A stretch of DNA of 64,000 nt from Candidatus Omnitrophota bacterium (GCA_028712255.1 JAQTQJ010000005.1:20950-84949), one strand, 5' to 3'. Positions 15,001 through 64,000 are shown, counted from the first letter of the stretch. A program made the numbers and translations. The notes: a model not told the origin generated them from the letters alone.

Positions 15001-18000
15001 AGTAGACAAGGTGGTAGATAAAGTTTCTTTAGAATTAGAAAGGGAGTTTAATTTAAGGCCTCAGGATTTCAAAGCGCAACTGGTCGGTGGTTGGTGGACG
15101 CAGTCTCAGGAGCTTGCACTAAAAATTACAAAATGCCTTGAAGAAAAACAGATAGCAATCGAAGGAATTGATGTTTTAAATAATCCCGAGAGGTTTATTT
15201 TTGATGGCAGGGACGCTTTCTACGGAGATTGTAGGATCATTTTAGATTTAGAAACAGGAGAAATATTTGATCTTATAGATTTAATAGAGCCTCACGACGG
15301 AATCTCAAGGCATATTATGCACTTTAGATATTACGCTGAATATATATTTAGGAGGATTTATAATGGAGGACAGCGAATGTTTGTTTTGGCTAAAAAAATT
15401 ACCGTTGTCCCCAATTTAAAGAAACTATTTTTAAGTTTATTAATTGCCATGTATTTTTTCTTAAGCCCCTTGCCTAGTAATATAAGTTTTATTGCTCCAG
15501 GGGTGGTTACAGCGAGTGCCCAGACGCCAACTCCTACCCAATTGTCTACTGAAGATGATTATCTAAATCGAGGTAACGAACATTTTTTTAAAAAAGAATA
15601 TGATGCGGCGATTGAAGATTATACTCAGACAATAAAATTAAACCCAACAAATGCCTTTGCTTATCATAATCGAGGAGTCTCATATAATAACAAAGTTGAT
15701 TATGATAGAGCGATTCGAGATTACGATCAGGCAATATTACTAAATCCAAAATATGCTGAGGCTTACAATAGCAGAGGTCTCGCTTATTATTTTAAAGGAG
15801 AAAATGAGAAAGCAATAAAAGATTATGATAGGGCAATAGAATTAGAACCCGATAATGTAAAGTTTAGAGATTTTCGAGCAGATGCTATAGGAAAATTATC
15901 GGTAAAACCAACTTCTACCCTTACAGCGACAGTTACGCGTACTCCTATACCTAAAACATCTACTCCTGTACTTAAATCATCTACGCCTACAGCAACAGCC
16001 ATACATACTCCCATCGTAACCAATTCGCCAACGCCAACATTTATGCCTATCGTATCTAGGGTGGCGACATGGACAGTAATACCTGTTTCCGCAGTTGAAG
16101 GCCCTGGAACGTTGGATAGGATCAAAGATCACTTGAAAGATAAGTGGTTGTGGTTAATTTTTACAATAGGACTAATAGCTATTTTTATTAAATGGAGACA
16201 GCGAATATTTATTTTTGCTCAAAAAATGGTCATTATTCCTAATTTAAAAGGATTTCTTAAATTTAAACCAGTCAGATTTTACTTAGGGTCGGGTAAAGAA
16301 ATTAATAAATTAACTATTCAAGAACGGCTATCTCTAGCCAAGCTGGCAGATCAATATTACGTTAAACAGATTAAGGATGTCCAGCCGAGCCTTATTTGTA
16401 CTGTTAAGAAAATCTTTAGCTTGAGGGGCCTGATCCTTATGTTGGCCGGAGGATTGATTACTTTTAAACTTTCTGTTTCCAATGATTGGCTTACTTTGGC
16501 CCTCGGAGCATTCTTTATGACTTTGTTGCCATACCTGCTTTCTGTCATCTATAATTTCTTCTTTTCATATATAGAACGCTATAGATTCCGTAGTGAATTT
16601 GTCAGGCAATATCTAAGAGATAAAAAAGTACAAGATAAAATAAAAGAAGAGCTTTCACAGATTAAGTCGGTGACTCAACCTTTACTTTCCATTAGAAGTT
16701 TATGGAATGATTTTACTTTAAGATCTCCTGTGTTTGCCGGTATTGTTATCTTTATTTTAGTAAAGGCCCAGATAGTTTTCTGGGGTTACTTAGCTGGTTT
16801 GGCAATTATCCCCTTGATTAGAATTGATATTGTTAACTTTACCTTAACTGGCATATTATCGACAATTTTAAAACTTATAAAATGGGAATGGTTTATCACT
16901 CCGGGTTTACAATTGGTAAATACATTAAATAATTTGGGTTTTGCTTTTACATTAGGGGATATTATTAAGTTGAGTGTAATTGCTTTAGGGTTAGCAATAC
17001 TATACACATCGCGCCACCGTAAAACATTACGTAAAATTGTTATTCATAATTTTAGGCAATTCTGGGTTAATCTAGTACACATCCTGGTTATTATTGCTAT
17101 AATGGGGAATCTCGGACTTAGTAGTTTTATGTTAAATAATTTCAAGCAAGCAACTGGAATTAGATTTCCTCAAGCGATTCATGCTCCTCTTAGCGGTAAA
17201 GTGGATGCAGGAATTTGGAATAGGGCTAATTTTATTTATCAACAGTTAAAAATAAATTCCGACTTAGCTTTGAAGATGGAGAACGGCCAGCAAGAATTGG
17301 AATTTCTATTAGAAGAATTTAAGGCGGGTAATGATATTAAAATCGAGGGGCCGACTGCTCCGGAGGTCAGGCAATTTTGTCTTTTCCTTCTGGGTCAGAA
17401 AGACAATACTCGGTCTAGAGAACTTCTTAATTTAGCTTTAAATGATCCGGATAAAGATGTACGCACGATGGCAATAATTTCTTTAAGTATAGCTGGCGAT
17501 ACGAAAGTAGCGTCTTTGCTTAATAATGCTTCGTTTAGGCAGGGAGGCCAGGTTCAGCAAGCGGCAGTTATTAGTTTGAAAAGTGTAAAGTCTTCTGAGG
17601 TAACGAATTTTCTACTAAAGAGTTTAAAGGATAATTCGCGTTCGGATATCCGTTCTGCTGCGGCAGGGGGGTTGATGGACAGAGTAAGCTTGCAGACAGT
17701 TAAAGATGCTTTGATATTCGCTTTAAATGATCCCGATCCGCTGGTAAGGAAAGCAGCGATTAAATCTTTGGCGCCGATAATCACAGCTGTAATTCCTCAA
17801 GTGGATTTAAAGACAATTGAGTCCATAAAACCACTTTTGTCTGATCCGGATTTGAATGTTCGTCAAGTTGCAATATTAGTTCTAGCTTTACGACTAGATG
17901 ATTTTCCTGGTAATTTAGGCCTTCTTATGCCTAAATTGACTGATTCTGATCAGCAGATTCGTTTGACTACCGTAGCAGCCGTAGGTTCACACCTAGATAA

Positions 18001-53201: not shown

Positions 53202-53933
53202 TTGGAGTTTAGGTGCATGAAAAATAAAATTGTTTTCTGGATCAAGAAACAGATTAAGGATTCTGGGGCCAAGGGTATTGTGATGGGGCTTTCCGGAGGG
53301 ATAGATTCTGCCGTAGTGGCTGCTTTGTGTAAAGAGGCAGTAGGTAAGAATAATATGCTGGTCCTATTTATGCCTTGTAATAGTAATATACAGGATCTAA
53401 AGGATGCTCGATTAGTTGCCAGGAAGTTTAATCTTAAATCAAAGCTGGTAGACCTTTGCGGCGTATATAATGATTTCTTAAGAGTTCTGCCTCAGGCAGG
53501 AGGCTTAGCCAGAGGGAATCTTAAGCCCCGCCTGCGTATGAGCACGCTTTATTATTTTGCTAATAAGCTAAATTACTTAGTATGCGGAACAGGAAATAAA
53601 TCTGAACTTATGGTTGGGTATTTCACCAAATATGGCGACGGCGGAGTGGATATTTTACCGATTGCGGATTTATTCAAGCGCCAGGTGCGTCAACTTGCGC
53701 AGGAGTTGAAGATACCGCAAAATATTATTACCAAGCCGCCTACTGCCGGGCTTTGGCAGGGGCAGACTGATGAAGGAGAGATGGGGATAACTTATAATGA
53801 ACTGGATGATATCTTAGATAGGTTTTGTAATAATCGAAAACAGATTGTTGGTAGCAGTAAAATTAACAAGGTAAAAAGAATGTACAAAAATTCAGAGCAT
53901 AAACGAAAAGGTGCGGATATTTGCCGCATTTAG
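53202..53933 (+). CDS. nadE: NH3-dependent NAD+ synthetase.
   Basis: PP-loop GLSGGIDSAVVAAL. YGDGG motif. Confidence 0.85.
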   Translation: MEFRCMKNKIVFWIKKQIKDSGAKGIVMGLSGGIDSAVVAALCKEAVGKNNMLVLFMPCNSNIQDLKDARLVARKFNLKSKLVDLCGVYNDFLRVLPQAGGLARGNLKPRLRMSTLYYFANKLNYLVCGTGNKSELMVGYFTKYGDGGVDILPIADLFKRQVRQLAQELKIPQNIITKPPTAGLWQGQTDEGEMGITYNELDDILDRFCNNRKQIVGSSKINKVKRMYKNSEHKRKGADICRI

Positions 53934-53947
53934 CTGGAGGAGCCAGA

Positions 53948-54433
53948 ATGGATGAGATCTTAGAGATTTTAGAAAAAGATGGCCGGGCAAGTATAGAAGA
54001 TATTGCCAAGATGACCTGCAGGAAGCCTGAGGACGTTAAAAAAGCGATTAAGAAATACGAAAAAGAGGGAGCAATTTTAAAATATAAGGCAGTAATTAAC
54101 AAGGATTTGGTTAGAGATAATGAATCTGAGGTTAGGGCTTTAATTGAAGTGAATATCGTTCCGCAGAAGGATCTGGGTTTTGAGAAGATTGCCGAGCGCA
54201 TCTATTCGTTTCCTGAGGTCACTAGCTGTTATTTAATCAGCGGCACATATGATTTACTGGTGGTTGTAGAAGGTAAGAATTTGCATACGGTTTCCAATTT
54301 TGTGGCAGAGAAGCTTTCCTGTTTAGAAAATGTGCGCGGCACAGCGACACATTTTTTATTAAAGAAATACAAGGAAGACGGAGTAATCCTGAAGCAGAAG
54401 TCGGAGAATAAGAGGATAGCGATATCCTATTAA
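53948..54433 (+). CDS. Lrp/AsnC family transcriptional regulator.
   Basis: N-terminal HTH (ILEILEKDGRASIEDIAKMT) plus a RAM domain. Confidence 0.75.
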   Translation: MDEILEILEKDGRASIEDIAKMTCRKPEDVKKAIKKYEKEGAILKYKAVINKDLVRDNESEVRALIEVNIVPQKDLGFEKIAERIYSFPEVTSCYLISGTYDLLVVVEGKNLHTVSNFVAEKLSCLENVRGTATHFLLKKYKEDGVILKQKSENKRIAISY

Positions 54434-54435
54434 AC

Positions 54436-54500
54436 AAGCTGTCAGCTGTAAGCGGTAAGTTTTAAGCTTACAGCTTATAACTTAAAGCTTATGGCTTAGT
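54436..54500 (+). repeat. Family III palindromic element (GTAAGCGG.AAGTTTTAAGCTTACAGCTTATAACTTAAA core).
   Basis: Related copies at 60886-60952 and 62910-62976. Nested inverted repeats ctgtaagc/gcttacag. Confidence 0.65.
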
Positions 54501-54518
54501 TTTTAGGGCCTATAAAAA

Positions 54519-55688
54519 ATGAAAGATCTTATTTCAAAAAAAGTTCAAGTTATGCAGCCATCCGGAATTCGGGCGTTCTTTGATTTAGTGCTTGGGATGA
54601 AGGATGTTATATCTTTGGGCGTAGGTGAGCCGGATTTTGTTACTCCTTGGCAGATTCGTGAAGCGGGAGTTTATTCTCTGGAGCAGGGGTTTACCAGTTA
54701 TACCTCAAATAAGGGGTTGTATAAACTGCGTTTGGGGATCAGCCGTTTTTTAAAAAATAAATATGGTTTAGATTATTGCCCGGATGAAGAAATATTAATT
54801 ACGGTAGGAGTTAGTGAAGGTTTGGATTTGCTCATGCGGGCGATAATTAACCCCGGTGATAAAATACTGGTTCCACAGCCAAGTTATGTTTCATATGGGC
54901 CGATTACAGAGCTTGCAGGGGGTACTCCGATTTATATCGATACTTCCAAAGATGGTTTTAAAATTACCCCTAAACTTTTGGAAAAACATATTGATAAGAA
55001 AACCAAAGGAATTGTTTTGAATTATCCCACTAATCCTACTGGAGTTTCTTATCGGCGTAAGGAATTAGAAGAGATAAATAAAGTTTTATTGAAGCATAAA
55101 ATACTTTGTATCAGCGACGAGGTTTATGGCGATTTAACCTACGATTTTGAACATGTTGCTTTTTCGACTTTGTCTGGAGCAAAGAAAAATACGGTTTATT
55201 TTAACGGATTTTCCAAATCCTATGCGATGACCGGCTGGCGGGTGGGTTTTGCTTGCGGCCCGAAAGAGATTATCGCGGCGATGACCAAGATTCATCAGTA
55301 TACGATTATGTGCGTGCCAATTACCAGCCAAATGGCAGCGGCAGAAGCTTTGATTAGCGGCGCAAGATCAGTTGAGCAGATGAAACGCGAATATAATCGC
55401 CGGAGAGAGCTTATGGTATTTGAGTTAAATTCTTTAGGATTAAAATGTTCTCGGCCGCAAGGGGCTTTCTATGTTTTTCCTTGTATTAAAAGTACAGGAT
55501 TAAGTTCAATTGAATTTTCGCGCAAGCTGCTGGAAGAAGAAAAGGTGGCGGTTGTTCCAGGCACGGCTTTTGGTACAAGCGCAGAAGGTTATATTAGAAT
55601 CTCTTATGCTTCTAGTATGGATAATTTAAAAGAAGCTTTAGTTCGCGTGAGGAGATTCTTGGATAAAATAAAACTTAAACCTAGGTAG
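54519..55688 (+). CDS. Class I/II PLP-dependent aminotransferase (aspartate aminotransferase-like).
   Basis: PLP-lysine motif FNGFSKSYAMTGWRVGF. Confidence 0.85.
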   Translation: MKDLISKKVQVMQPSGIRAFFDLVLGMKDVISLGVGEPDFVTPWQIREAGVYSLEQGFTSYTSNKGLYKLRLGISRFLKNKYGLDYCPDEEILITVGVSEGLDLLMRAIINPGDKILVPQPSYVSYGPITELAGGTPIYIDTSKDGFKITPKLLEKHIDKKTKGIVLNYPTNPTGVSYRRKELEEINKVLLKHKILCISDEVYGDLTYDFEHVAFSTLSGAKKNTVYFNGFSKSYAMTGWRVGFACGPKEIIAAMTKIHQYTIMCVPITSQMAAAEALISGARSVEQMKREYNRRRELMVFELNSLGLKCSRPQGAFYVFPCIKSTGLSSIEFSRKLLEEEKVAVVPGTAFGTSAEGYIRISYASSMDNLKEALVRVRRFLDKIKLKPR

Positions 55689-55692
55689 TAAA

Positions 55693-56190
55693 ATGTTCAT
55701 CTATGAAGATATCTTACGTGAATTTCAAAAACATAAAATTCAATATATCGTTATCGGCGGTATTGCTGTTAATTTGCATGGGGCCTTAAGAAGTACTGCT
55801 GATTTGGATATAATGCTTGAAATGAGCGAGGATAATCTTAAGAATTGTTTAATTATTCTGAAAAGAAACAATTACCGCAGCAAACAACCTATTGATTGGA
55901 TTCAGATAGCTGATAAAAAAACTAGAGAATATTTAATACGAAAGAAGAATTTAAAAGCGGTGAATTTCTATAAAAATAGTAGTTTTGAGGAAGTCGATAT
56001 AATAATAGAGGCGCCGTTTACTTTTGGAGAAGCAAGAAATGATATTATTTGGGTTAGGAGCGGGAGCATAAGAATACCATTGTTATCAATTGATGGTTTG
56101 ATTAAAATGAAAAAAAAAGCGGGACGTATTGTTGATAAGCTTGATATAGACGCATTAAAGCGGATAAAAAGATTAAGGGTGAACGCATGA
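55693..56190 (+). CDS. Nucleotidyltransferase-fold protein, possibly the toxin/antitoxin-type minimal NTase.
   Basis: YIVIGGIAVNLHGALRSTADLDIM resembles the GS...D.D NTase motif. Confidence 0.45.
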   Translation: MFIYEDILREFQKHKIQYIVIGGIAVNLHGALRSTADLDIMLEMSEDNLKNCLIILKRNNYRSKQPIDWIQIADKKTREYLIRKKNLKAVNFYKNSSFEEVDIIIEAPFTFGEARNDIIWVRSGSIRIPLLSIDGLIKMKKKAGRIVDKLDIDALKRIKRLRVNA

Positions 56191-56345
56191 TTTTTAAATG
56201 GGAGAGTGAAGATGAACGTATTCTCAGGTTCATAAGTATTCCTGTAAAAAAGAAGCTAGAGTGGCTTTATGAAATGAATAAGTTTTTAAATAATTTTTCT
56301 TCGGTAAAAATTAGAAAAATTAGGCAGAAGCTAAGGGAATCTTAA
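56187..56345 (+). CDS. Small ORF of 52 aa that overlaps the stop of the NTase gene (ATGA). Possible partner protein.
   Basis: Hand-translated as MIFKWESEDERILRFISIPVKKKLEWLYEMNKFLNNFSSVKIRKIRQKLRES. Below the ORF-track size cut-off. Confidence 0.3.
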   Translation: MIFKWESEDERILRFISIPVKKKLEWLYEMNKFLNNFSSVKIRKIRQKLRES

Positions 56346-56360
56346 ATATTAGGAGAATAG

Positions 56361-57083
56361 ATGGTGGTGAAAAAGAAGGAAAATTATGAAATATACGTAA
56401 AACAGATCGAGGCTATTTCAAAAGTGGCGAATTTGCTTACCTCGGGAATGTATTTGGAGGAAATTTTACGTTTAGTGGTGCAGGTTACCGCTGAAATTAT
56501 GAATTCTAAAATTTCTTCTTTAATGCTGCTTGACCCGGAGAAAAAAGAGCTGGTGGTTAAAGCTACCCAATCAATATCCGAGGCATATAATAAGAAGCCG
56601 AATATCCGTTTAGGCCAGGGGATAGCCGGCGCGGTGGCACAGGAGAACAAGCCGATGTGTATCTTGGATATTAAGACCGATGCGCGCTACCTGAACCAGG
56701 ATATTGCTAGAAAAGAGGGTCTTTGTTCTTTAGCCTGCGTTCCGCTGGCAGTCAAGGGAAGAGTTATTGGAGTGCTTAATTGTTATACTTCTAAAAAGCA
56801 TAAATTTTCCAAGCATGAATTGGATCTTCTGACGGCTTTGGCTAATCAGGCAGCCATTGCTATTGAAAACGCAGAGCTTGATTTACGCGCGCGCTCCGCA
56901 GAGGAGGCTCTTACCATCCGTAAATTAGTCGAACGGGCAAAGGATATTCTGTCTCAGGAAGCTAATATTTTGCCTTCAGAGGCTTATCGGCTGATTCAAA
57001 AGCAAAGCATGGATATGCGTAAATCCATGCGTGAAGTGGCAGAAGCCATAATTCTAGCTAAAGATATTAGAGGTAAGAGGTAG
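56361..57083 (+). CDS. GAF-ANTAR regulator (RNA-binding antitermination regulator with a GAF sensor domain).
   Basis: C-terminal ANTAR signature IRKLVERAKDILSQEANILPSEAYRLIQKQSMDMRKSMREVAEAII. N-terminal GAF-like domain. Confidence 0.75.
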   Translation: MVVKKKENYEIYVKQIEAISKVANLLTSGMYLEEILRLVVQVTAEIMNSKISSLMLLDPEKKELVVKATQSISEAYNKKPNIRLGQGIAGAVAQENKPMCILDIKTDARYLNQDIARKEGLCSLACVPLAVKGRVIGVLNCYTSKKHKFSKHELDLLTALANQAAIAIENAELDLRARSAEEALTIRKLVERAKDILSQEANILPSEAYRLIQKQSMDMRKSMREVAEAIILAKDIRGKR

Positions 57084-57114
57084 TTATAGGAGAGGTTGAG
57101 CTGGCTTACAATTC

Positions 57115-57762
57115 ATGGAATTTTTCCCAAAGTTAATCGATGTATTACTTCATTTTAATACCTACCTTAGTGTTTTAATCCAGCAGTGCGGTTTGTGGAC
57201 ATATCTTATACTTTTTGGGGTTATTTTTGCGGAGACCGGATTTGTGGTAACGCCGTTTCTGCCCGGGGATTCGCTTCTTTTTGTGTTAGGCGCTTTTTCC
57301 GCCCAAGGAACATTTAATCCTTTTGTTTTGTCCGGAATTCTCATGTTTGCGGCGATTTTAGGCGATAGTGTCAATTATGCTATCGGGAAATATTTAGGAA
57401 ATCGGCTGATTTCCGCTAGACACATCCCTTTTTTTAAGAAAGAACATTTGGACCGGACCCACCATTTCTATAAAAAGTATGGCGGCAAAACAATTATTTT
57501 AGCCAGGTTTATACCTATAGTAAGGATGTTTGCTCCGTTTATCGCAGGTATCGTGCGTATGGATTATGCCAAATTCTTTATCTATAATGTAATAGGGGGC
57601 ATATTATGGGTAGCAATCTTTGTGTTTGGAGGTTTTTATTTCGGAAATATTCCTATTGTGAAAGAAAATTTTTCTGTAGTTACGCTACTAATTATTAGTA
57701 TCTCGATAATACCGGTTATAGTTGAATTTATTAAAGCGAGAAGAAAAAAGAATTTACCTTGA
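57115..57762 (+). CDS. DedA/SNARE-associated family membrane protein.
   Basis: PGDSLLF and ARFIPIVRMFAPFIAGIV motifs. Confidence 0.8.
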   Translation: MEFFPKLIDVLLHFNTYLSVLIQQCGLWTYLILFGVIFAETGFVVTPFLPGDSLLFVLGAFSAQGTFNPFVLSGILMFAAILGDSVNYAIGKYLGNRLISARHIPFFKKEHLDRTHHFYKKYGGKTIILARFIPIVRMFAPFIAGIVRMDYAKFFIYNVIGGILWVAIFVFGGFYFGNIPIVKENFSVVTLLIISISIIPVIVEFIKARRKKNLP

Positions 57763-57997
57763 CAGTAGTAAAAGGTATGGTATGCTTTAATTAGATTACA
57801 GCGTTGTAGTAAAAGACACAGAAGTCTTCTAGGCGGTTAGGTTTGCTTAGGAGGCTTTTTGTTGGTCAGGACTAAGGCGTCCTTACCCGATAAAAGGGTG
57901 AGGACGTTTTTTATTGTACGGGAGATTAGTATATCTAGTAGGGACTGTCCCACGACAAGTTAAGTATAATTTGCTGCTAACGAAAAAAGGAATAGCA

Positions 57998-58519
57998 ATG
58001 AGTTTTGAGGAGCTGTATCATAAATTATCGCCAACAATTAAGCGGATTGCCTATAAGTTAAACGGACGCTACCGTTCCTTTAACCATGATGATCTGTACC
58101 AAGAGGCTTCAATCCACCTTTGGAGTAATTTCTTAAAAGGGAAACTTAACGATAAAACTGATAGCTATATTTTACAGGGGTGTTATTTTCACTTGAGGAA
58201 CCATATTCGAAAAGTAAATGAGTATTCCAATATTATTAGTATTGATACTCACCTGAGCACGAATGAGAAATCAACCATAGAGGATATTTTGGGTAAATTT
58301 TGGTCTTGTCCTGATTGCCGGGAAGATTTACACAATAAGTTTCTGGCGCAAAATATCCAAAATAACGGTTTTAGCCCAAGAGAGAAAAAGCTGCTTGCTT
58401 ATTTTAGCCAGGGCTTAACTACCAGGGATATAGGTAATCGTATGGGGATATCTCATGTTAGCGTAGTTAAGATGATGCAAAAAGTTAGAGCTAAGGCAAA
58501 AAAACATTTAGATAGATAA
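57998..58519 (+). CDS. Sigma-70 family (ECF-like) sigma factor. Start moved to ATG 57998, which has an aagga RBS.
   Basis: Region-2-like DLYQEASIHLW. Region-4 HTH LTTRDIGNRMGISHVSVVKMMQKVRAKAKK. Confidence 0.6.
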   Translation: MSFEELYHKLSPTIKRIAYKLNGRYRSFNHDDLYQEASIHLWSNFLKGKLNDKTDSYILQGCYFHLRNHIRKVNEYSNIISIDTHLSTNEKSTIEDILGKFWSCPDCREDLHNKFLAQNIQNNGFSPREKKLLAYFSQGLTTRDIGNRMGISHVSVVKMMQKVRAKAKKHLDR

Positions 58520-58588
58520 TATCCTTCGTCTCTAGATAAAAACTTATTGTAGACTCAGGATAAATTTTGCTTGGCAAAATTTAATTTG

Positions 58589-58618
58589 GTTACCAGATTT
58601 AGTTATTCTTTACTTGTA
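58589..58618 (+). promoter_or_regulatory. Promoter-like motif GTTACC-N16-TACTTGTA, upstream of the OM-protein/amt/glnB unit.
   Basis: The same bipartite motif with identical spacing recurs at 61394-61423 and 63403-63432. Confidence 0.5.
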
Positions 58619-58656
58619 GTAATGTAAAACACATTGAAGTGTAAGATTTAAACAAC

Positions 58657-58686
58657 GGCGTTCTATGAAAATAGAGCGCCTTTTTT
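58657..58686 (+). terminator. Leader intrinsic-terminator-like hairpin (ggcgttctat gaaa atagagcgcc + TTTTTT) between the promoter motif and the OM-protein gene.
   Basis: 10-bp stem followed by a T6 tract. Further hairpin/T-tract structures at about 58697-58716 and 58770-58800. Confidence 0.45.
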
Positions 58687-58841
58687 GTTTTAACCAGACG
58701 CAGGCGTCTTTTGCCCAACAAGGGCACACCCGCGCAATTCCTTATAAGCGCGGGGTGTTACTGAGAGGGGTTTAGAAAGGCGCTTTTTGTTTTTAAAAGC
58801 AATTTAAGCGCAACACGGGCATAATAATAAAAAGGAGAAAA

Positions 58842-59642
58842 ATGCGAAAATTATCAATGATTTTGTTTTTTCTGTTTTCTGTCCTCTGTTTTCTGTTCTC
58901 TGTATGTTATGCAACACCTTCAACGCTTATTTGGGCTCCTTCAACCGATATTCAACCTTATGGTTTGATCCATTTAACCGTAGATAACTACACGCCGGTT
59001 AAGAGCAGGGATCATAATGATAATCAGCTTTATGTTCAACAAGTTTATGGACCAACTTTTAGTTTGTTATCCAATAAGCCGGAAGATAACTTTTTAGGTA
59101 AATTTTGGTCGCCTTTAGGTAAAATAATGGCAGAGACTGGTTTTGATTACAAAAAGGGTTTTGGCTCCATACTGGACAAGTGGCCGGTATATTTTCATTT
59201 TAAATTCGGCGTACCTGAAAGCGCCTATTTTAACTATATGCCTGCATTTGCAATCGGTGTATATGATATGGGTTATAAGCATAATTTTACCAATAACAAT
59301 GTTTGGTACTTGAGGGCAGCAAAAACTGCTTCTATAGGTAAGTTTAATTTAGGTAGGTTCTCTGTCGGTTATTTTAACGGTAATGGCAGGACTTTGCGGG
59401 ATAAAAATGGAGAGCGTGATAATTCCGGGCCGATGATTGCTTGGGAACGCACGATTTCAGAGATAAGTGACAGGCTTTGGTTATGTGTGGATTATCAGGG
59501 AACGCAGTCATCTTACGGCGCGCTTAATTACGGATTTGCCTGGAAGTTTACGAATAATATCGTAGCGATACTTGCATATGATGTTTATAATAATCCGAAT
59601 TCAAAAAATACCGTAACGTTTCAGTTAGATGTTGATTTTTAA
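58842..59642 (+). CDS. Putative outer-membrane/secreted protein encoded upstream of amt.
   Basis: Signal peptide MRKLSMILFFLFSVLCFLFSVCYA. Aromatic-rich beta-strand-like pattern. C-terminal DVDF. Confidence 0.4.
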   Translation: MRKLSMILFFLFSVLCFLFSVCYATPSTLIWAPSTDIQPYGLIHLTVDNYTPVKSRDHNDNQLYVQQVYGPTFSLLSNKPEDNFLGKFWSPLGKIMAETGFDYKKGFGSILDKWPVYFHFKFGVPESAYFNYMPAFAIGVYDMGYKHNFTNNNVWYLRAAKTASIGKFNLGRFSVGYFNGNGRTLRDKNGERDNSGPMIAWERTISEISDRLWLCVDYQGTQSSYGALNYGFAWKFTNNIVAILAYDVYNNPNSKNTVTFQLDVDF

Positions 59643-59657
59643 CATAGGAGGAGCCAA

Positions 59658-60884
59658 ATGAATTCAGGTGATACAGCATGGGTTTTAATTTCATCAGCCC
59701 TTGTTTTACTGATGACTCCCGGCCTTGCTTTTTTCTACGGAGGCATGGTGCGGCGCAAAAATGTTTTAAGTGTTTTGATGCAATGTTTTATTATCATGTG
59801 TGTTTTAAGCCTTCAGTGGGTTTTGGTTGGTTATAGCCTATCTTTTCATCCGGGAAATGGATTTTGGGGAGGTTTACAATGGATGGGTTTAAATGGAGTA
59901 GGTTTAGAGCCTTACGCGGACTACGCAGGGTCAATACCACATCAAGCGTTTATGGTCTTTCAAGGGATGTTTGCCATAATTACACCGGCTTTGATTATTG
60001 GCGCGTTTGCCGAAAGGATGAAATTTTCCGCGTTTTTGATTTTTACTTTGCTTTGGGCAACGTTTGTTTATGATCCTTTATGCCACTGGGTTTGGGGAAT
60101 GGGTGGTTGGTTAAGAAATTTAGGCGCTTTGGATTTTGCCGGAGGTACGGTTGTGCATATCAATGCCGGTATTGCAGCTTTGGTTACGGCAATCGTATTA
60201 GGTAAAAGAAGTAACCTGGATAAAAATGTTCCTACGCCGCATAACATGCCTTTTGTGGTTTTAGGCACAGTGCTTTTGTGGTTTGGTTGGTTTGGTTTTA
60301 ATGCCGGCAGTGCGTTAGCGGCAAACGGCTTAGCGGTAAATGCGTTTGTGGTAACTAATACCGCAGCAGCGGCTGCGGGTTTAGCTTGGGCTTTGATCGA
60401 ATGGATGCATAATGGAAAGCCTACCATTTTTGGTGTCTGTTCTGGTGCAGTCGCAGGCTTAGTCGCGATTACTCCTGCAGCAGGTTTTGTGGGTGTAATT
60501 GGAGCTATAGTTATTGGTTTATTGGTGAGTGTAGTTTGTTTTATTGCCGTGACTGTAATCAAGCCGCTTTTTGGTTATGATGATTCTTTGGATGCATTTG
60601 GCGTACACTGTGTAGGAGGAATCTGGGGGGCGTTAGCTACAGGATTATTTGCTTCTAAGCTGATTAATCCTGCTGGAGCCAATGGGTTATTTTTTGGTAA
60701 TCCTAAACAATTCCTGACACAGGCTTTAGCTGTAGGTGTAACCATTGTTTATACAGGAGTTGTAACCTTTATTATTTATAAATTAGTGGATATTTTTATT
60801 GGGGTTAGGGTTGATGAGAAGTCAGAAGCTATAGGTCTTGACCTTACCCAGCATCGTGAGAGGGCATATACGATACTTGAATGA
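59658..60884 (+). CDS. amt: Ammonium transporter, copy 1.
   Basis: DFAGGTVVHINAGIAALV Amt signature. 11 TM helices. Confidence 0.9.
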   Translation: MNSGDTAWVLISSALVLLMTPGLAFFYGGMVRRKNVLSVLMQCFIIMCVLSLQWVLVGYSLSFHPGNGFWGGLQWMGLNGVGLEPYADYAGSIPHQAFMVFQGMFAIITPALIIGAFAERMKFSAFLIFTLLWATFVYDPLCHWVWGMGGWLRNLGALDFAGGTVVHINAGIAALVTAIVLGKRSNLDKNVPTPHNMPFVVLGTVLLWFGWFGFNAGSALAANGLAVNAFVVTNTAAAAAGLAWALIEWMHNGKPTIFGVCSGAVAGLVAITPAAGFVGVIGAIVIGLLVSVVCFIAVTVIKPLFGYDDSLDAFGVHCVGGIWGALATGLFASKLINPAGANGLFFGNPKQFLTQALAVGVTIVYTGVVTFIIYKLVDIFIGVRVDEKSEAIGLDLTQHRERAYTILE

Positions 60885-60885
60885 A

Positions 60886-60952
60886 AGCTCTAAGCCATAA
60901 GCCGTAAGCGGCAAGTTTTAAGCTTACAGCTTATAACTTAAAACTTAGAGCT
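60886..60952 (+). repeat. Family III palindromic element between amt1 and glnB1. An exact second copy lies at 62910-62976.
   Basis: agctctaagccataagccgtaagcggcaagttttaagcttacagcttataacttaaaacttagagct. The outer agctctaag/cttagagct and inner gtaagc/gcttac arms are inverted repeats. Confidence 0.65.
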
Positions 60953-60974
60953 AGAGTTTACAAAGGAGGATAAT

Positions 60975-61316
60975 ATGAAACTAGTGATTGCTATAATTCA
61001 ACCGTATAAGCTAGAAGAAGTAAAGGAGGAGCTGTATAAGGTAGAAGTAAACCTGATTACCGTAAGCGAAGTTTTAGGCCATGGCCGCCAGAAAGGTATC
61101 ACTGAAGTCTACCGCGGTTCTAAAGAAACCGGGAATCTCCTGCGAAAAATCCGCCTTGAGATTGCCGTAAACGATAATTATCTTGAACCGACAATCAAGG
61201 CAATTGTTAAAGGCGCCAAAACCGGTGAAACCGGAGATGGAAAAATATTTGTCCTCGATCTTAAAGAATGCATCCGTATCCGCACTGAAGAACGCGGGGC
61301 AGTGGCGATAGGGTAG
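60975..61316 (+). CDS. glnB: P-II nitrogen regulatory protein, copy 1.
   Basis: GHGRQKG and TGETGDGKIFV P-II motifs. T-loop YRGS. Confidence 0.9.
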   Translation: MKLVIAIIQPYKLEEVKEELYKVEVNLITVSEVLGHGRQKGITEVYRGSKETGNLLRKIRLEIAVNDNYLEPTIKAIVKGAKTGETGDGKIFVLDLKECIRIRTEERGAVAIG

Positions 61317-61393
61317 GAATTAGAGATCCTTCGTCTGTAGATAAAAGCTTATTGTGGACTCAGGATAAATTTTGCTTCGCAAAATTTAATTTA

Positions 61394-61423
61394 AGTTACC
61401 AAAACAGGTAGTTGTTTACTTGT
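61394..61423 (+). promoter_or_regulatory. Promoter-like motif GTTACC-N16-TACTTGTA, upstream of amt copy 2.
   Basis: See 58589-58618. Confidence 0.5.
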
Positions 61424-61481
61424 ACTATTATAGATTAATATAAGCACACAGTAGTGTTTATATTGAAGAAGCGCAATGTAA

Positions 61482-61525
61482 GCGCCAATACGGTTTATAA
61501 AATAACCGTAAAGGCGCTTTTTTTT
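61482..61525 (+). terminator. Leader terminator-like nested hairpin (gcgcc...acggtt/aaccgt...ggcgc + T8) upstream of amt copy 2.
   Basis: GC stem followed by TTTTTTTT. Confidence 0.45.
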
Positions 61526-61681
61526 CGCCAGAAATCGTGGCGAATCCGCCATGTATTATGGCGGAATTTACTTACCCTATTTTTACGCAATTGGTTATCC
61601 AGTTGAGCAAATTAATCGAAACAGTTTCCAGCCCAATCGGGAAATGGGGTTTAAGAGAAGAAACTATTTATGGGAGGTGAG

Positions 61682-62908
61682 ATGATTAATCAAGCGGATA
61701 CGTTGTTTGTTCTGATGTCGGCGGCGTTTGTAATGCTGATGACTCCCGGCCTTGCTTTTTTCTACGGAGGCATGGTCAGGCGCAAGAATATTTTAAGCGT
61801 TTTAATGCAATGTTTTGTTGCTTTATGTCTGTTGTCTTTACAATGGATAATTTTTGGTTATAGCCTATCTTTTGCTCCAGGAAATGGGTTTTGGGGAGGC
61901 CTTAGTTGGTTTGGTTTAAACGGAGTGGGGGCAGCTCCTTATGCGGGTTATTCTGTGACTATTCCGCATCAGGCATTTATGGTTTTTCAGATGATGTTTG
62001 CTGTTATAACTCCAGCGCTTATTATTGGTGCTTTTGCCGAAAGGATGAAGTTTTCGGCTTTCTTAGTTTTCACCCTACTTTGGGCAACCTTTGTTTATGA
62101 TCCTTTGTGTCACTGGATTTGGGGAGTAGGAGGTTGGCTTAGAAACCTTGGCGTGCTTGATTTTGCCGGAGGTATTGTTGTGCATACTAGCGCCGGAATT
62201 GCAGCTTTAGTTTCTACTATTATCATTGGTAAAAGAAAGAACTTGGAGCATACACCGTCTCCACATAACCTCCCTTTTGTAGTTTTAGGAACTGCGCTTT
62301 TATGGTTTGGCTGGTATGGTTTTAATGCCGGCAGCGCTTTGGCGGTAAATGGAATTGCAGTAAGCGCTTTTATTGCTACTAATACTGCTGCAGCCGCAGC
62401 CGGTTTAAGCTGGGCGTTCTTGGAGTGGATACGTAATGGCAAACCTACGGTTTTTGGTATTGTAACCGGTTCGATTGCTGGGCTTGCCACTGTTACTCCT
62501 GCTTCGGGATTTGTAAGCCCGATTTCAGCAATTATTATCGGTATTGCTGCCAGTATAATTTGTTTTATCGCGGTTGCAGTAACTAAACCGCGGTTTGGTT
62601 ATGATGATTCTTTGGATGCCTTCGGCGTGCATGGCGTAGGAGGAATACTGGGTACGCTTTTAACCGGGGTATTGGCTTCTAAAGCAATAAATCCGGCAGG
62701 AGCGGACGGTTTATTATATGGTAATCCTAAGCAGTTACTTATACAATTATTGGCGGTTACGGTTGCAGTAAGCTATACTTTTATTGCTACTTTTATTATT
62801 TATAAGCTCGTAGATATTTTCTTTAGGATGCGTGTAAGTGAGAAAGATGAGCTGGTCGGTCTTGACCTTACCCAGCATCGTGAGAGGGCATATACGATAC
62901 TTGAATGA
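61682..62908 (+). CDS. amt: Ammonium transporter, copy 2. Start set at ATG 61682, which has a ggaggtgag RBS.
   Basis: About 80% identical to copy 1. DFAGGIVVHTSAGIAALV. Confidence 0.9.
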   Translation: MINQADTLFVLMSAAFVMLMTPGLAFFYGGMVRRKNILSVLMQCFVALCLLSLQWIIFGYSLSFAPGNGFWGGLSWFGLNGVGAAPYAGYSVTIPHQAFMVFQMMFAVITPALIIGAFAERMKFSAFLVFTLLWATFVYDPLCHWIWGVGGWLRNLGVLDFAGGIVVHTSAGIAALVSTIIIGKRKNLEHTPSPHNLPFVVLGTALLWFGWYGFNAGSALAVNGIAVSAFIATNTAAAAAGLSWAFLEWIRNGKPTVFGIVTGSIAGLATVTPASGFVSPISAIIIGIAASIICFIAVAVTKPRFGYDDSLDAFGVHGVGGILGTLLTGVLASKAINPAGADGLLYGNPKQLLIQLLAVTVAVSYTFIATFIIYKLVDIFFRMRVSEKDELVGLDLTQHRERAYTILE

Positions 62909-62998
62909 AAGCTCTAAGCCATAAGCCGTAAGCGGCAAGTTTTAAGCTTACAGCTTATAACTTAAAACTTAGAGCTAGAGTTTACAAAGGAGGATAAT

Positions 62999-63340
62999 AT
63001 GAAACTAGTGATTGCTATAATTCAACCGTATAAGCTAGAAGAAGTAAAGGAGGAGCTGTATAAGGTAGAAGTAAACCTGATTACCGTAAGCGAAGTTTTA
63101 GGCCATGGCCGCCAGAAAGGTATCACTGAAGTCTACCGCGGTTCTAAAGAAACCGGGAATCTCCTGCGAAAAATCCGCCTTGAGATTGCCGTAAACGATA
63201 ATTATCTTGAACCGACAATCAAGGCAATTGTTAAAGGCGCCAAAACCGGTGAAACCGGAGATGGAAAAATATTTGTCCTCGATCTTAAAGAATGCATCCG
63301 TATCCGCACTGAAGAACGCGGGGCAGTGGCGATAGGGTAG
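62999..63340 (+). CDS. glnB: P-II nitrogen regulatory protein, copy 2. Identical nucleotide sequence to copy 1.
   Basis: Exact duplicate of 60975-61316. Confidence 0.9.
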   Translation: MKLVIAIIQPYKLEEVKEELYKVEVNLITVSEVLGHGRQKGITEVYRGSKETGNLLRKIRLEIAVNDNYLEPTIKAIVKGAKTGETGDGKIFVLDLKECIRIRTEERGAVAIG

Positions 63341-63345
63341 GAAAA

Positions 63346-63391
63346 CCAGGTGACGGTTCTCTTTCTTAAGAGAACCGTCACCTGGTTTTTA
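63346..63391 (+). terminator. Rho-independent terminator / REP-like hairpin ccaggtgacggttctc-tttcttaa-gagaaccgtcacctgg + TTTTT.
   Basis: Perfect 16-bp stem followed by a T-tract. Member of the GGGGACGGTTC hairpin family. Confidence 0.7.
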
Positions 63392-63402
63392 AGAAGATTG
63401 AA

Positions 63403-63432
63403 GTTACCAGAAATGATTCTTTTTTACTTGTA
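63403..63432 (+). promoter_or_regulatory. Promoter-like motif GTTACC-N16-TACTTGTA, upstream of glnN.
   Basis: See 58589-58618. Followed by hairpin agaggc...gcctct + T-rich at 63443-63485. Confidence 0.5.
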
Positions 63433-63537
63433 ATTAGAGAACAGAGGCGTTCTGGTGTATTAGAGAATGCCTCTTTTAATTTTTGCTGATTGTGGTAAGA
63501 TAAATCCAATATTCTTTTAATGTGCAAGGGGGGGAAA

Positions 63538-64000
63538 ATGAGCATAAGACAGAAGGTTTTATTTAAAATTAAGAGCACTGACTTGGAAAAAATTGATTCT
63601 CCGAAAAAGGTTTCTTCTTATTTTGGAGAAAATACTTTTAACACCGAAACTATGCAGAAGCATATCTCTAAGCCTACCTTTGAAGCTTTTAAGCTTTGGA
63701 TGTCTGAGGGCAAGACCATTACCATGGAACAGGCGAATGAGATTGCCGGTGCCATGAAAGACTGGGCGATGGCCAAAGGCGCCACATATTATACGCATTG
63801 GTTTCAGCCGATGACCGGCCTGACTGCAGAGAAGCACGATAGTTTCATCTCTATTACTGCTCCGGGAAAAGTAATTGAAAAATTTTCAGGCAATAAATTA
63901 ATCCAGGGTGAGCCGGATGCCTCAAGTTTTCCCTCAGGAGGAATTCGCGCGACTTTTGAAGCCAGAGGTTATACTGCCTGGGATCCTTCAAGCCCGGCAT
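63538..64000 (+). CDS. glnN: Glutamine synthetase type III, N-terminal fragment. Runs off the 3' window edge.
   Basis: Hand-translated as MSIRQK...[18 protein letters not shown]...[31 protein letters not shown], matching GSIII N-terminal motifs. Confidence 0.8.

Follow-up and report, generated by a model that had tools for sequence, protein, structure and literature searches.

By which mechanism does an Omnitrophota-like bacterium switch on its genes for ammonium assimilation, if the leaders of these genes carry intrinsic terminators? The question is raised by a stretch of DNA of 64,000 nucleotides (nt) from Candidatus Omnitrophota bacterium (GCA_028712255.1 JAQTQJ010000005.1:20950-84949), in the following called the window. 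It is the only part of this genome in view, it provides the numbering of all features, and these lie on its plus strand unless stated otherwise. A sequence-only reading of this DNA had proposed that a GAF-ANTAR regulator, encoded immediately upstream of three nitrogen units, controls them by antitermination. The regulator is readily recognized by its domains (56361-57083, 240 aa; Pfam GAF_2 E 1.5e-24, ANTAR E 2.1e-15, above the Pfam cut-off) and is predicted to be a one-component RNA-binding protein. The units are borne out by family matches to Amt, P-II and type III glutamine synthetase (GSIII): unit 1 encodes a secreted, porin-like outer-membrane protein (58842-59642; assigned by appearance, without family match), amt (59658-60884) and glnB (60975-61316), unit 2 comprises a second amt (61670-62908) and a glnB identical to the copy in unit 1 (62999-63340), and the third unit is glnN (63538-64000; GSIII_N E 1.2e-58), which is cut at the window end. 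The regulator gene is, however, not their immediate neighbor. A DedA/VTT membrane protein (57115-57762; open reading frame (ORF) and family match) and an extracytoplasmic function (ECF)-type sigma factor of the sigma-70 family (57998-58519, 173 aa; TIGR02937) intervene, and the regulator gene lies 0.7-6.4 kb upstream of the leaders of the sigma gene and the nitrogen units, on the same strand.

From these data we regard an ANTAR-type transcription-attenuation regulon for ammonium assimilation, complemented by a sigma factor layer, as the likely design of this locus. The nitrogen genes would probably be switched on by overriding early termination. This reading of the locus as a nitrogen antitermination circuit is supported at the sequence level by covariation of RNA hairpins, by their strand specificity, and by their recurrence beside orthologous GAF-ANTAR genes.

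Predicted attenuators in the leaders

The RNA targets of ANTAR dimers are hexaloops whose first base is A and whose fourth is G (A1/G4); the dimer stacks G4 on an aromatic residue and blocks formation of the terminator (PMC3369931, PMC8934654). Attenuator 1 of unit 1 (58629-58690) displays this arrangement in full, and is recognized by folding, by the terminator scan, and with 40 bits by the covariance model (CM) described below. Its first hairpin (P1) ACAC-AUUGAA-GUGU (58629-58642), already pointed out by the sequence-only reading, is followed by an 8-nt linker and a second hairpin (P2) AAC-AACGGC-GUU (58651-58662). The loop and 3' arm of P2 (GGCGUU) form the 5' arm of terminator 1 (58657-58680 + U6, -16.4 kcal/mol). 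In attenuator 2 of unit 1 (58696-58794; fold -42 kcal/mol, z -4.3), a long-range terminator (58702-58785 + U-tract) whose loop contains a repeat-like insert is overlapped by the hairpin AGAC-GCAGGC-GUCU (58696-58709). L001, L005 and L006 have this module as well, free of the insert; L-numbers denote the loci of a comparison set of 80 that encode relatives of the regulator. Terminators had been proposed at 58657-58686, 61482-61525 and 63443-63485, and all three are found as strong folds; two further sites, 58697-58716 and 58770-58800, turn out to be the two arms of the one long-range terminator.

The insert in the loop of unit 1 terminator 2 is a REP-like element (GCCCAACAAGGGCACACC-hairpin-GGGTGTT; 58713-58760). 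Copies are found in leaders of relatives (L010 17410-17520, and the glnN leaders of L005 and L018), one of them in tandem. A second element, CGCC...GGCGAATCCGCC...GGCGGA (61526-61565), is located downstream of the unit 2 terminator and has counterparts in relatives.

The unit 2 attenuator (61435-61526) is recognized by folding, and the CM detects its P1 only, a 13-bp stem with the hexaloop ACAGUA (61435-61466). Its terminator comprises 61481-61518 + U8, and the segment 61481-61526 folds at -20.8 kcal/mol. The glnN attenuator (63438-63485; partial CM match, P2 only) consists of a single hexaloop hairpin without P1, AGAAC-AGAGGC-GUUCU (63438-63453), which begins 5 nt past the promoter motif. Its loop and 3' arm constitute the 5' arm of the terminator (63443-63474 + U-tract; -16.6 kcal/mol vs -4.4 for the hairpin). 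This layout is also present in L002, L004 and L005, and a single hexaloop is the minimal ANTAR binding motif (PMC8934654).

Attenuators of the same kind are found in the 210-nt leader of the sigma gene, both conserved in 13 loci. Attenuator 1 (57796-57863; CM match of 39 bits) comprises P1 UUAC-AGCGUU-GUAG (57796-57809), P2 AAGAC-ACAGAA-GUCUU (57813-57828) and a terminator (57824-57855 + U-tract), with energies of -23.3 kcal/mol for the terminator vs -3.9 for P2. In attenuator 2 (57869-57916; partial CM match, hairpin conserved in relatives) GGAC-UAAGGC-GUCC overlaps a terminator (57874-57910 + U-tract) which is the strongest in the terminator scan (15 pairs, -24.3 kcal/mol).

P2 shares the 5' arm of the terminator, rendering both structures mutually exclusive, in all six attenuators of the window. 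A tandem hexaloop pair is present in unit 1 (58629-58662) and in the sigma leader (57796-57828); unit 2 combines a hexaloop P1 with a heptaloop P2, and glnN has P2 only. Linkers of 3-4 nt separate the two hairpins of the sigma leader and of unit 2, and the linker of unit 1 has 8 nt. The dual-hexaloop arrangement, the absence of which had been set as the test against the proposal, is thus found as a full pair in unit 1, and P2 overlaps the terminator in units 2 and 3. The leaders fold with z-scores of -2.3 to -7.4 vs shuffles. Across the window leaders the P2 hairpins range from 0 to -5.7 kcal/mol vs -16 to -42 for the terminators. Because P2 is weak and the terminators are strong, termination would be the default, and a factor would be needed to hold P2 closed.

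Conservation and covariation of the hairpins

A census of NAC-NNNGNN-GUN hairpins on the plus strand of the 64 kb finds 8 of 14 within the 1107 nt of the four leaders (7.2 per kb vs 0.095 elsewhere), a figure which is descriptive only, since the pattern was defined after inspecting the leaders. G4 is present in 8/8 window hairpins and A1 in 6/8. The hairpins at 1455, 3233, 8105, 17115, 32182 and 47926 were rejected as targets, as they lie in coding sequence without terminators; the same holds for a CM match at 17780.

For the comparison, 27 dual-hairpin leaders from 13 genomes were aligned. The fourth loop base is G in 27/27 (P1) and 26/27 (P2), the first is A in 20/27 (74%) for either hairpin, and the closing pairs AC...GU are invariant in both. 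Stem cells are paired in 82% vs 29-45% with slid partners. Compensatory changes occur at the third and fourth pairs of both stems (P1 pair 3: C-G 16, U-A 10; P2 pair 3: A-U 13, G-C 11). The covariation score amounts to 0.348 vs 0.186 in shuffles, and 0 of 500 shuffles reach this value. The covariance modeling that had been suggested as a check thus finds the arrangement conserved with covariation.

A CM was built from this alignment, and its E-values are rough. It yields two full matches in the window (40 and 39 bits), partial ones at the other attenuators, and one weak off-target match. Its matches fall on the strand of the regulator in 51/52 cases across 1.2 Mb of loci, and in 47/47 and 57/57 cases in two further searches. 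Upstream of the GAF-ANTAR gene (56361) and of the aminotransferase gene in the window, no credible motif was found by the CM, with a match of only 9.9 bits (at 54413) in the latter case; in a distant locus, L029, the motif is located upstream of the ANTAR gene itself.

The same leader layout is found in 15 related Omnitrophota loci. Among the close relatives the gene order is aminotransferase, GAF-ANTAR, sigma, (porin), amt, glnB, (amt, glnB), glnN, often followed by a Fis-type small protein and gltB, or by glnA, and each unit opens with the promoter motif GTTACC-N16-TACTTGTA and the same hairpins. A fourth unit with the same motif and dual hairpins was observed 3' of glnN in L002 (16736-20720), L003, L005, L007 and L016. 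It encodes a 127-aa Fis/NtrC-type helix-turn-helix protein with a degenerate receiver-like N-terminus, then gltB; this small protein may take part in regulating the system as well.

CM matches outside the seed precede gltB, gdhA-carB (five loci), glnA, amt-glnB, nadE and porin-like genes, and each of these sites has a terminator overlapped by P2. In other phyla, e.g. Nitrospirota, the sites adjoin orthologous GAF-ANTAR genes, lying directly downstream of them in L054 and L055; in Nitrospira, a site directly after the GAF-ANTAR gene precedes glutamine-dependent nadE. Lineages without the sigma gene have the same hairpins behind ordinary TTGACA...TATAAT promoters.

Domains of the regulator

The ANTAR domain (Pfam PF03861) comprises residues 180-231 (56.6 bits vs a cut-off of 27.3) and matches the PDB entries of Rv1626, EutV and NasR, with which it was aligned. 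In EutV, Tyr164 stacks on loop G4 (PMC8934654). Alignment by phmmer places the segment SEAYRLIQ of the regulator opposite EEAYQMLR of EutV (chain 6wsh), with F at the position of the aromatic residue in Rv1626 and W in NasR. The correspondence of the aromatic residue to EutV Tyr164 is one by alignment only, because the PDB numbering is offset by about 2.

The N-terminal domain is a GAF domain, and Pfam reports no receiver domain. Its best matches are the N-terminus of NifA (E 2.1e-15), PtsP (EI-Ntr; E 1.6e-13) and the Aquifex NifA-like protein Nlh1 (E 5.5e-13). The GAF domain of EI-Ntr senses glutamine and 2-oxoglutarate. According to published reports, the GAF domain of NifA is the module by which fixed nitrogen controls NifA, and that of Azospirillum NifA is reported to interact with GlnB, as tested with ATP and 2-oxoglutarate. 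Since the GAF domain of the regulator is closest to NifA and PtsP, and NifA GAF domains are tied to fixed-nitrogen control, a reasonable guess by analogy would be that its signal is nitrogen status, be it 2-oxoglutarate, glutamine or P-II.

Homologues of the regulator number more than 6000, the nearest being 86-94% identical; the named ones of these are from Candidatus Omnitrophota metagenome-assembled genomes. A GAF-only paralogous ORF, which shares 23-30% identity with the GAF part of the regulator, is found directly upstream of GAF-ANTAR (at about 70-500 nt) in L054, L055, L060, L061 and L065-L080, which are Nitrospira-like and Elusimicrobia-like loci.

Promoter motif and sigma factor

The promoter-like motif that had been noted in each nitrogen leader proves to be one invariant pattern of 30 nt, GTTACC-N16-TACTTGTA. 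A pattern search locates it at 58589-58618 (unit 1), 61395-61424 (unit 2) and 63403-63432 (distal promoter of glnN), i.e. one copy per nitrogen-unit leader and none elsewhere in the 64 kb (3 copies vs 0.02 expected). A generic sigma-70 promoter scan shows no enrichment (18 found vs 19.3 expected) and misses this motif, hence the unit promoters are not standard sigma-70 sites. A search for sigma-54 promoters (TGGCAC-N5-TTGC, at most 2 mismatches) gives 36 matches vs 43 expected, none of them on the plus strand in the leaders.

The protein encoded at 57998-58519 matches TIGR02937 over its full length (49.4 bits, cut-off 42.9), with weak Pfam matches to Sigma70_r2 (22.9 vs a cut-off of 24, just below) and GerE (25.4). 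It is classified as ECF-type, a group with regions 2 and 4 only, by its match to the ECF superfamily model. The sigma gene is syntenic in 15 related loci. The GTTACC motif is present in 16/16 sources with the sigma gene (30 copies, all on the plus strand) vs 0/65 without it, and this co-occurrence extends to sigma orthologues which are only 36-42% identical. From this pattern across the sources we infer that the ECF-type sigma factor encoded at this locus recognizes GTTACC-N16-TACTTGTA as its promoter.

The sigma gene itself does not appear to be autoregulated, its own promoter being sigma-70-like instead of the GTTACC motif: TTGACA-N16-TGgTATGCT (57759-57786) is the best regional match (10/12 + TG) and is conserved in relatives. 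No anti-sigma-like ORF is adjacent to the sigma gene among the window ORFs. Autoregulation and a neighboring anti-sigma gene are common, if not universal, among ECF sigma factors. Judging from these sequences, the sigma gene seems to be controlled by attenuation instead of autoregulation or an anti-sigma factor. A perfect TATAAT (57965-57970) sits in the segment of about 88 nt between sigma terminator 2 and the start codon. A similar TATAAT segment is found in L002 (around 10940); in most relatives the start codon follows about 20-30 nt after terminator 2. The TATAAT at 57965-57970 could be an attenuator-independent promoter of the sigma gene.

A proximal extended -10 promoter, TGTGGTAAGAT (63491-63501), is recognized by conservation 3' of the glnN attenuator. 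The pattern TGnTA[A/G][A/G]AT upstream of glnN is kept in 9/13 loci, including L009, L016 and L018, which have no distal motif. Because this conserved extended -10 lies downstream of the attenuator, glnN probably has basal, unattenuated expression. The attenuators postulated by the sequence-only reading are joined by two features it had overlooked, namely a sigma factor with an attenuated leader of its own and the second promoter of glnN.

A 67-nt repeat with two internal hairpins (94% identical) lies directly 5' of the promoter motifs of units 1 and 2 (58521-58587 and 61326-61392). A similar element is found at the equivalent site in L004, and none in L001-L003 and L005, in which the motif directly adjoins the stop codon of the sigma gene. 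The repeat could serve as a regulatory site upstream of the promoter, terminate the preceding gene, or represent a mobile element.

Proposed circuit and alternative explanations

In the model that we consider likely, transcription would by default halt in the leader at the intrinsic terminator. Once the GAF domain of the 56361-57083 protein adopts its active state, which is probably set by nitrogen status via 2-oxoglutarate, glutamine or contact with P-II, an ANTAR dimer would bind the hexaloops, with G4 flipped onto the conserved aromatic residue. The bound dimer would hold P2 closed, thereby blocking the terminator and allowing RNA polymerase to read through. The three nitrogen units would start at GTTACC-N16-TACTTGTA, read by the co-encoded ECF-type sigma factor, the gene of which would be transcribed from an ordinary sigma-70 promoter and lie behind two attenuators of the same kind. 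The sequence data thus suggest a sigma/antiterminator cascade, and as the regulator would gate both the sigma gene and each operon targeted by the sigma factor, this would be a coherent feed-forward loop. From its proximal promoter glnN would retain basal, unattenuated transcription.

A wider reading is more tentative, and we put it at somewhat short of an even chance. It holds that a single one-component GAF-ANTAR sensor governs ammonium assimilation as a master switch in a number of little-studied phyla (Omnitrophota, Nitrospirota, Desulfobacterota-like and Elusimicrobia-like bacteria), with the sigma feed-forward in the Omnitrophota clade to which the window belongs, and that it fills the role held elsewhere by NtrBC/sigma-54, GlnR/TnrA or NtcA. 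The sigma leader would then be antiterminated first, followed by porin-amt-glnB, amt-glnB and glnN, and in relatives by fis-like-gltB and glnA; feedback of the P-II proteins onto the NifA-like GAF domain is conceivable.

Several observations weigh against the attenuation model. Concerning the hairpins, P2 of unit 1 has 3 base pairs and an energy of 0.0 kcal/mol. P2 of unit 2, GCGC-AAUGUAA-GCGC (61471-61485), has a 7-nt loop with A1 and G4 and is missed by the CM. A canonical hexaloop P2 for unit 2 was sought in the window and in L004, and only this 7-nt loop, which both share, fits. For the glnN leader, a P1 was sought and not found in the window, L002, L004, L005 and L007. Of the three nitrogen leaders, unit 1 thus has the paired hexaloops, and unit 2 deviates from them by the size of the P2 loop and glnN by the single hairpin. 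About a quarter of the hairpins have G as the first loop base, and one has U. Linkers in relatives spread from 0 to about 33 nt, although EutV is sensitive to linker length and the linkers of eut leaders measure 5-12 nt. Concerning the statistics, the census pattern was chosen post hoc from the window leaders, the window sequences belonged to the CM seed, and the covariation derives mostly from two sequence classes (unit leaders and sigma leaders) of related genomes. The assignment of the sigma factor to its promoter is one of co-occurrence only, without phylogenetic independence, and the TATAAT at 57965-57970 and the extended -10 at 63491-63501 are possible bypass promoters. Concerning the genomic context, the regulator is found without a nitrogen cluster in the fetched flank of the Omnitrophota loci L008, L011, L015, L022 and L023. 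Orthologues elsewhere precede gdhA, which makes either direction of the nitrogen signal, and with it either sign of the response, conceivable.

The most probable of the alternatives, still an unlikely one in our view, takes the attenuators as real and as worked by some other factor, i.e. a second ANTAR protein encoded elsewhere, another RNA-binding protein, or a metabolite acting on the RNA, with GAF-ANTAR serving the aminotransferase operon. The aminotransferase is the most constant neighbor of GAF-ANTAR, being located directly upstream in L001-L024, L027, L064 and in the window (54519-55688), and the two genes are probably co-transcribed. This linkage is more conserved than that of GAF-ANTAR with the nitrogen cluster, which speaks for the alternative and against the attenuation model, as does the fact that, with 64 kb of the genome in view, a second ANTAR protein is possible. 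However, the aminotransferase gene has no such motif 5' of it, apart from the 9.9-bit match mentioned above, and orthologous GAF-ANTAR genes of different phyla are accompanied by the motif, which in some loci follows them immediately. The alternative is also disfavored by the focus of conservation, which falls on the G4-bearing hexaloops and their closing pairs, the signature of ANTAR and not that of an aptamer core. An Rfam 15 scan of 56000-64000 (E <= 10) gave chance matches to the palindromic terminator only, and no glutamine riboswitch or other cis-regulator.

A further alternative is confined to the sigma leader and would leave the attenuation model intact at the three nitrogen units. In this case the short transcript from the promoter at 57759 to terminator 1 or 2 would be a decoy small RNA which sequesters the ANTAR protein, like EutX/Rli55 does for EutV, and the sigma gene would not be attenuated. 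Such a transcript would be a compact RNA of about 70-125 nt with three ANTAR-type hairpins, RNAs with one or two hexaloops are known to act by sequestration, and the TATAAT at 57965-57970, present in L002 as well, could drive the sigma gene separately. Nevertheless, we hold this to be improbable: the short distance between terminator 2 and the sigma start codon in most relatives leaves no space for a promoter, and each P2 overlaps its own terminator, which is an attenuator design.

Control of initiation only, with the ECF-type sigma factor as sole regulator, the hairpins and U-tracts as constitutive partial terminators, insulators or sources of short RNAs, and the likeness of the hexaloops as incidental, is very improbable, because the perfect co-occurrence of sigma gene and motif and the abundance of terminators in this AT-rich genome (12 found vs 8.2 expected), which fit it, leave unexplained the invariant G4, the shared AC...GU closing pairs, the covarying stems, the overlap of P2 with the terminator, and the retention of the hairpins behind sigma-70 promoters in lineages without the sigma gene.

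Neighboring genes and repeated elements

The region upstream of the regulator encodes a Lrp/AsnC-type regulator (53921-54433; ORF and family match), the class I/II aminotransferase (54519-55688; ORF and family match) and a small DUF6036 nucleotidyltransferase pair (55693-56345; ORF and family match). The latter consists of a DUF6036 gene and an overlapping ORF of 52 codons, inserted between the aminotransferase and GAF-ANTAR, which are abutting genes in relatives; by its appearance it resembles a toxin-antitoxin-like insertion. On the other side of the regulator, the DedA/VTT gene follows GAF-ANTAR directly in the window and in L061 (10894-11301) and L067 (3116-3724), both Elusimicrobia-like, and not in the close Omnitrophota relatives. 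Its stop codon in the window lies inside the -35 hexamer of the sigma-leader promoter.

The segments 60834-61340 and 62858-63364, each spanning the 3' end of amt, the spacer and the whole of glnB, are 100% identical between units 1 and 2, and the remainder of the two amt genes displays about 70-73% identity. The identical blocks could be the result of a recent gene conversion or duplication, or of an assembly collapse. Unit 2 is closed by a strong bidirectional terminator (63342-63389), a perfect 22-bp palindrome. A palindromic element of about 60-75 nt (...GTAAGCGGYAAGTTTTAAGCTTACAGCTTATAACTTAAA...) is located 5' of the aminotransferase (54436-54510) and in both amt-glnB spacers (60878-60952 and 62902-62976). 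The first third of the window is occupied by one giant ORF of 7245 codons (59-21796, plus strand).

Relation to known ANTAR systems

The GAF-ANTAR architecture is abundant, also in actinobacteria. Experimental knowledge on the control of nitrogen metabolism is, as far as we are aware, lacking for Omnitrophota, and it is scarce for Nitrospira, which is a key nitrifier. If the attenuation model is true, it would provide the first functional assignment and a target set for this architecture, and if the sigma gene truly lies behind the same attenuators as its targets, this would be an unusual feed-forward design of post-initiation and initiation control. The predicted circuit is compact (a 240-aa sensor, RNA sites of about 40 nt, a small sigma factor and a sharply defined promoter), such that in vitro reconstitution is possible without culturing the organism, and the CM is usable for annotation of the regulon in metagenomes.

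The RNA element and its mechanism fit the ANTAR paradigm, and nitrogen genes under ANTAR control have been described or predicted before. The sequence-only reading had presented such a circuit as uncharacterized in this kind of organism, which was overstated: ANTAR RNAs were predicted in 2012 upstream of P-II, amt, glutamine synthetase and glutamate synthase genes in many bacteria (PMC3369931), and antitermination by GnfR was shown at nifH in Geobacter (PMC2995071). What stands is that no characterized GAF-ANTAR member is reported in the literature searched. Among the predictions of Ramesh et al. (2012), Desulfotomaculum acetoxidans, D. reducens and Pelobacter carbinolicus likewise have multiple CM-found attenuators upstream of nitrogen genes. 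These cases are, however, from Firmicutes and Deltaproteobacteria, with mostly response-regulator ANTAR proteins and no link to a sigma factor described.

The eut leaders of Enterococcus faecalis, which are the targets of EutV/EutW (PMC3369931, PMC8934654), share with the present leaders the two mini-hairpins with 6-nt loops, A1/G4 and conserved closing pairs, the overlap of P2 with an intrinsic terminator, and the presence of several attenuators per regulon. The ANTAR domain of the regulator aligns with that of EutV, including the aromatic residue apparently matching the G4-stacking Tyr164. In contrast to EutV, where a receiver is phosphorylated and the targets are ethanolamine genes, sensing is assigned here to a GAF domain within one polypeptide, and the predicted targets are genes of ammonium assimilation. 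The present leaders also differ from those of eut in having A or G at loop position 1, one heptaloop P2, one single-hairpin leader, and specialized promoters.

NasR and the nasF leader of Klebsiella oxytoca resemble the present locus in combining a one-component sensor-ANTAR protein, an A1/G4 hexaloop hairpin 5' of a terminator, and an operon of nitrogen assimilation. The sensor is different, as NIT senses nitrate/nitrite there and a NifA-like GAF domain is found here, and so are the targets (nitrate reductase there; by prediction amt, glnB, glnN and the sigma gene here).

GnfK/GnfR of Geobacter sulfurreducens is also organized in two layers of special promoters and attenuators. GnfR binds GGC-AANGGC-GCC, is required for read-through of the nifH leader, and the same termination signals occur before amtB and glnK (PMC2995071); the P2 loops ANNGGC here resemble its site CAGGCAANGGCGCC. 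Unlike the regulator described here, which has a GAF N-terminus and no receiver, GnfR is of the response-regulator type and is paired with a cognate kinase. In Geobacter the promoters depend on sigma-54, with GnfL/GnfM activating gnfR, whereas the layer predicted here is that of an ECF-type sigma factor, itself behind attenuators.

The relation to NifA and EI-Ntr is one of the GAF domain, compared by overall sequence match. Its output would be RNA binding here, and is AAA+ or phosphotransfer activity there. Relative to all of these systems, the sequence data point to three distinct features of the present locus, i.e. a one-component GAF-ANTAR regulator, its coupling to a dedicated ECF-type sigma factor which is itself attenuated, and the heptaloop and single-hairpin variants of the RNA element.

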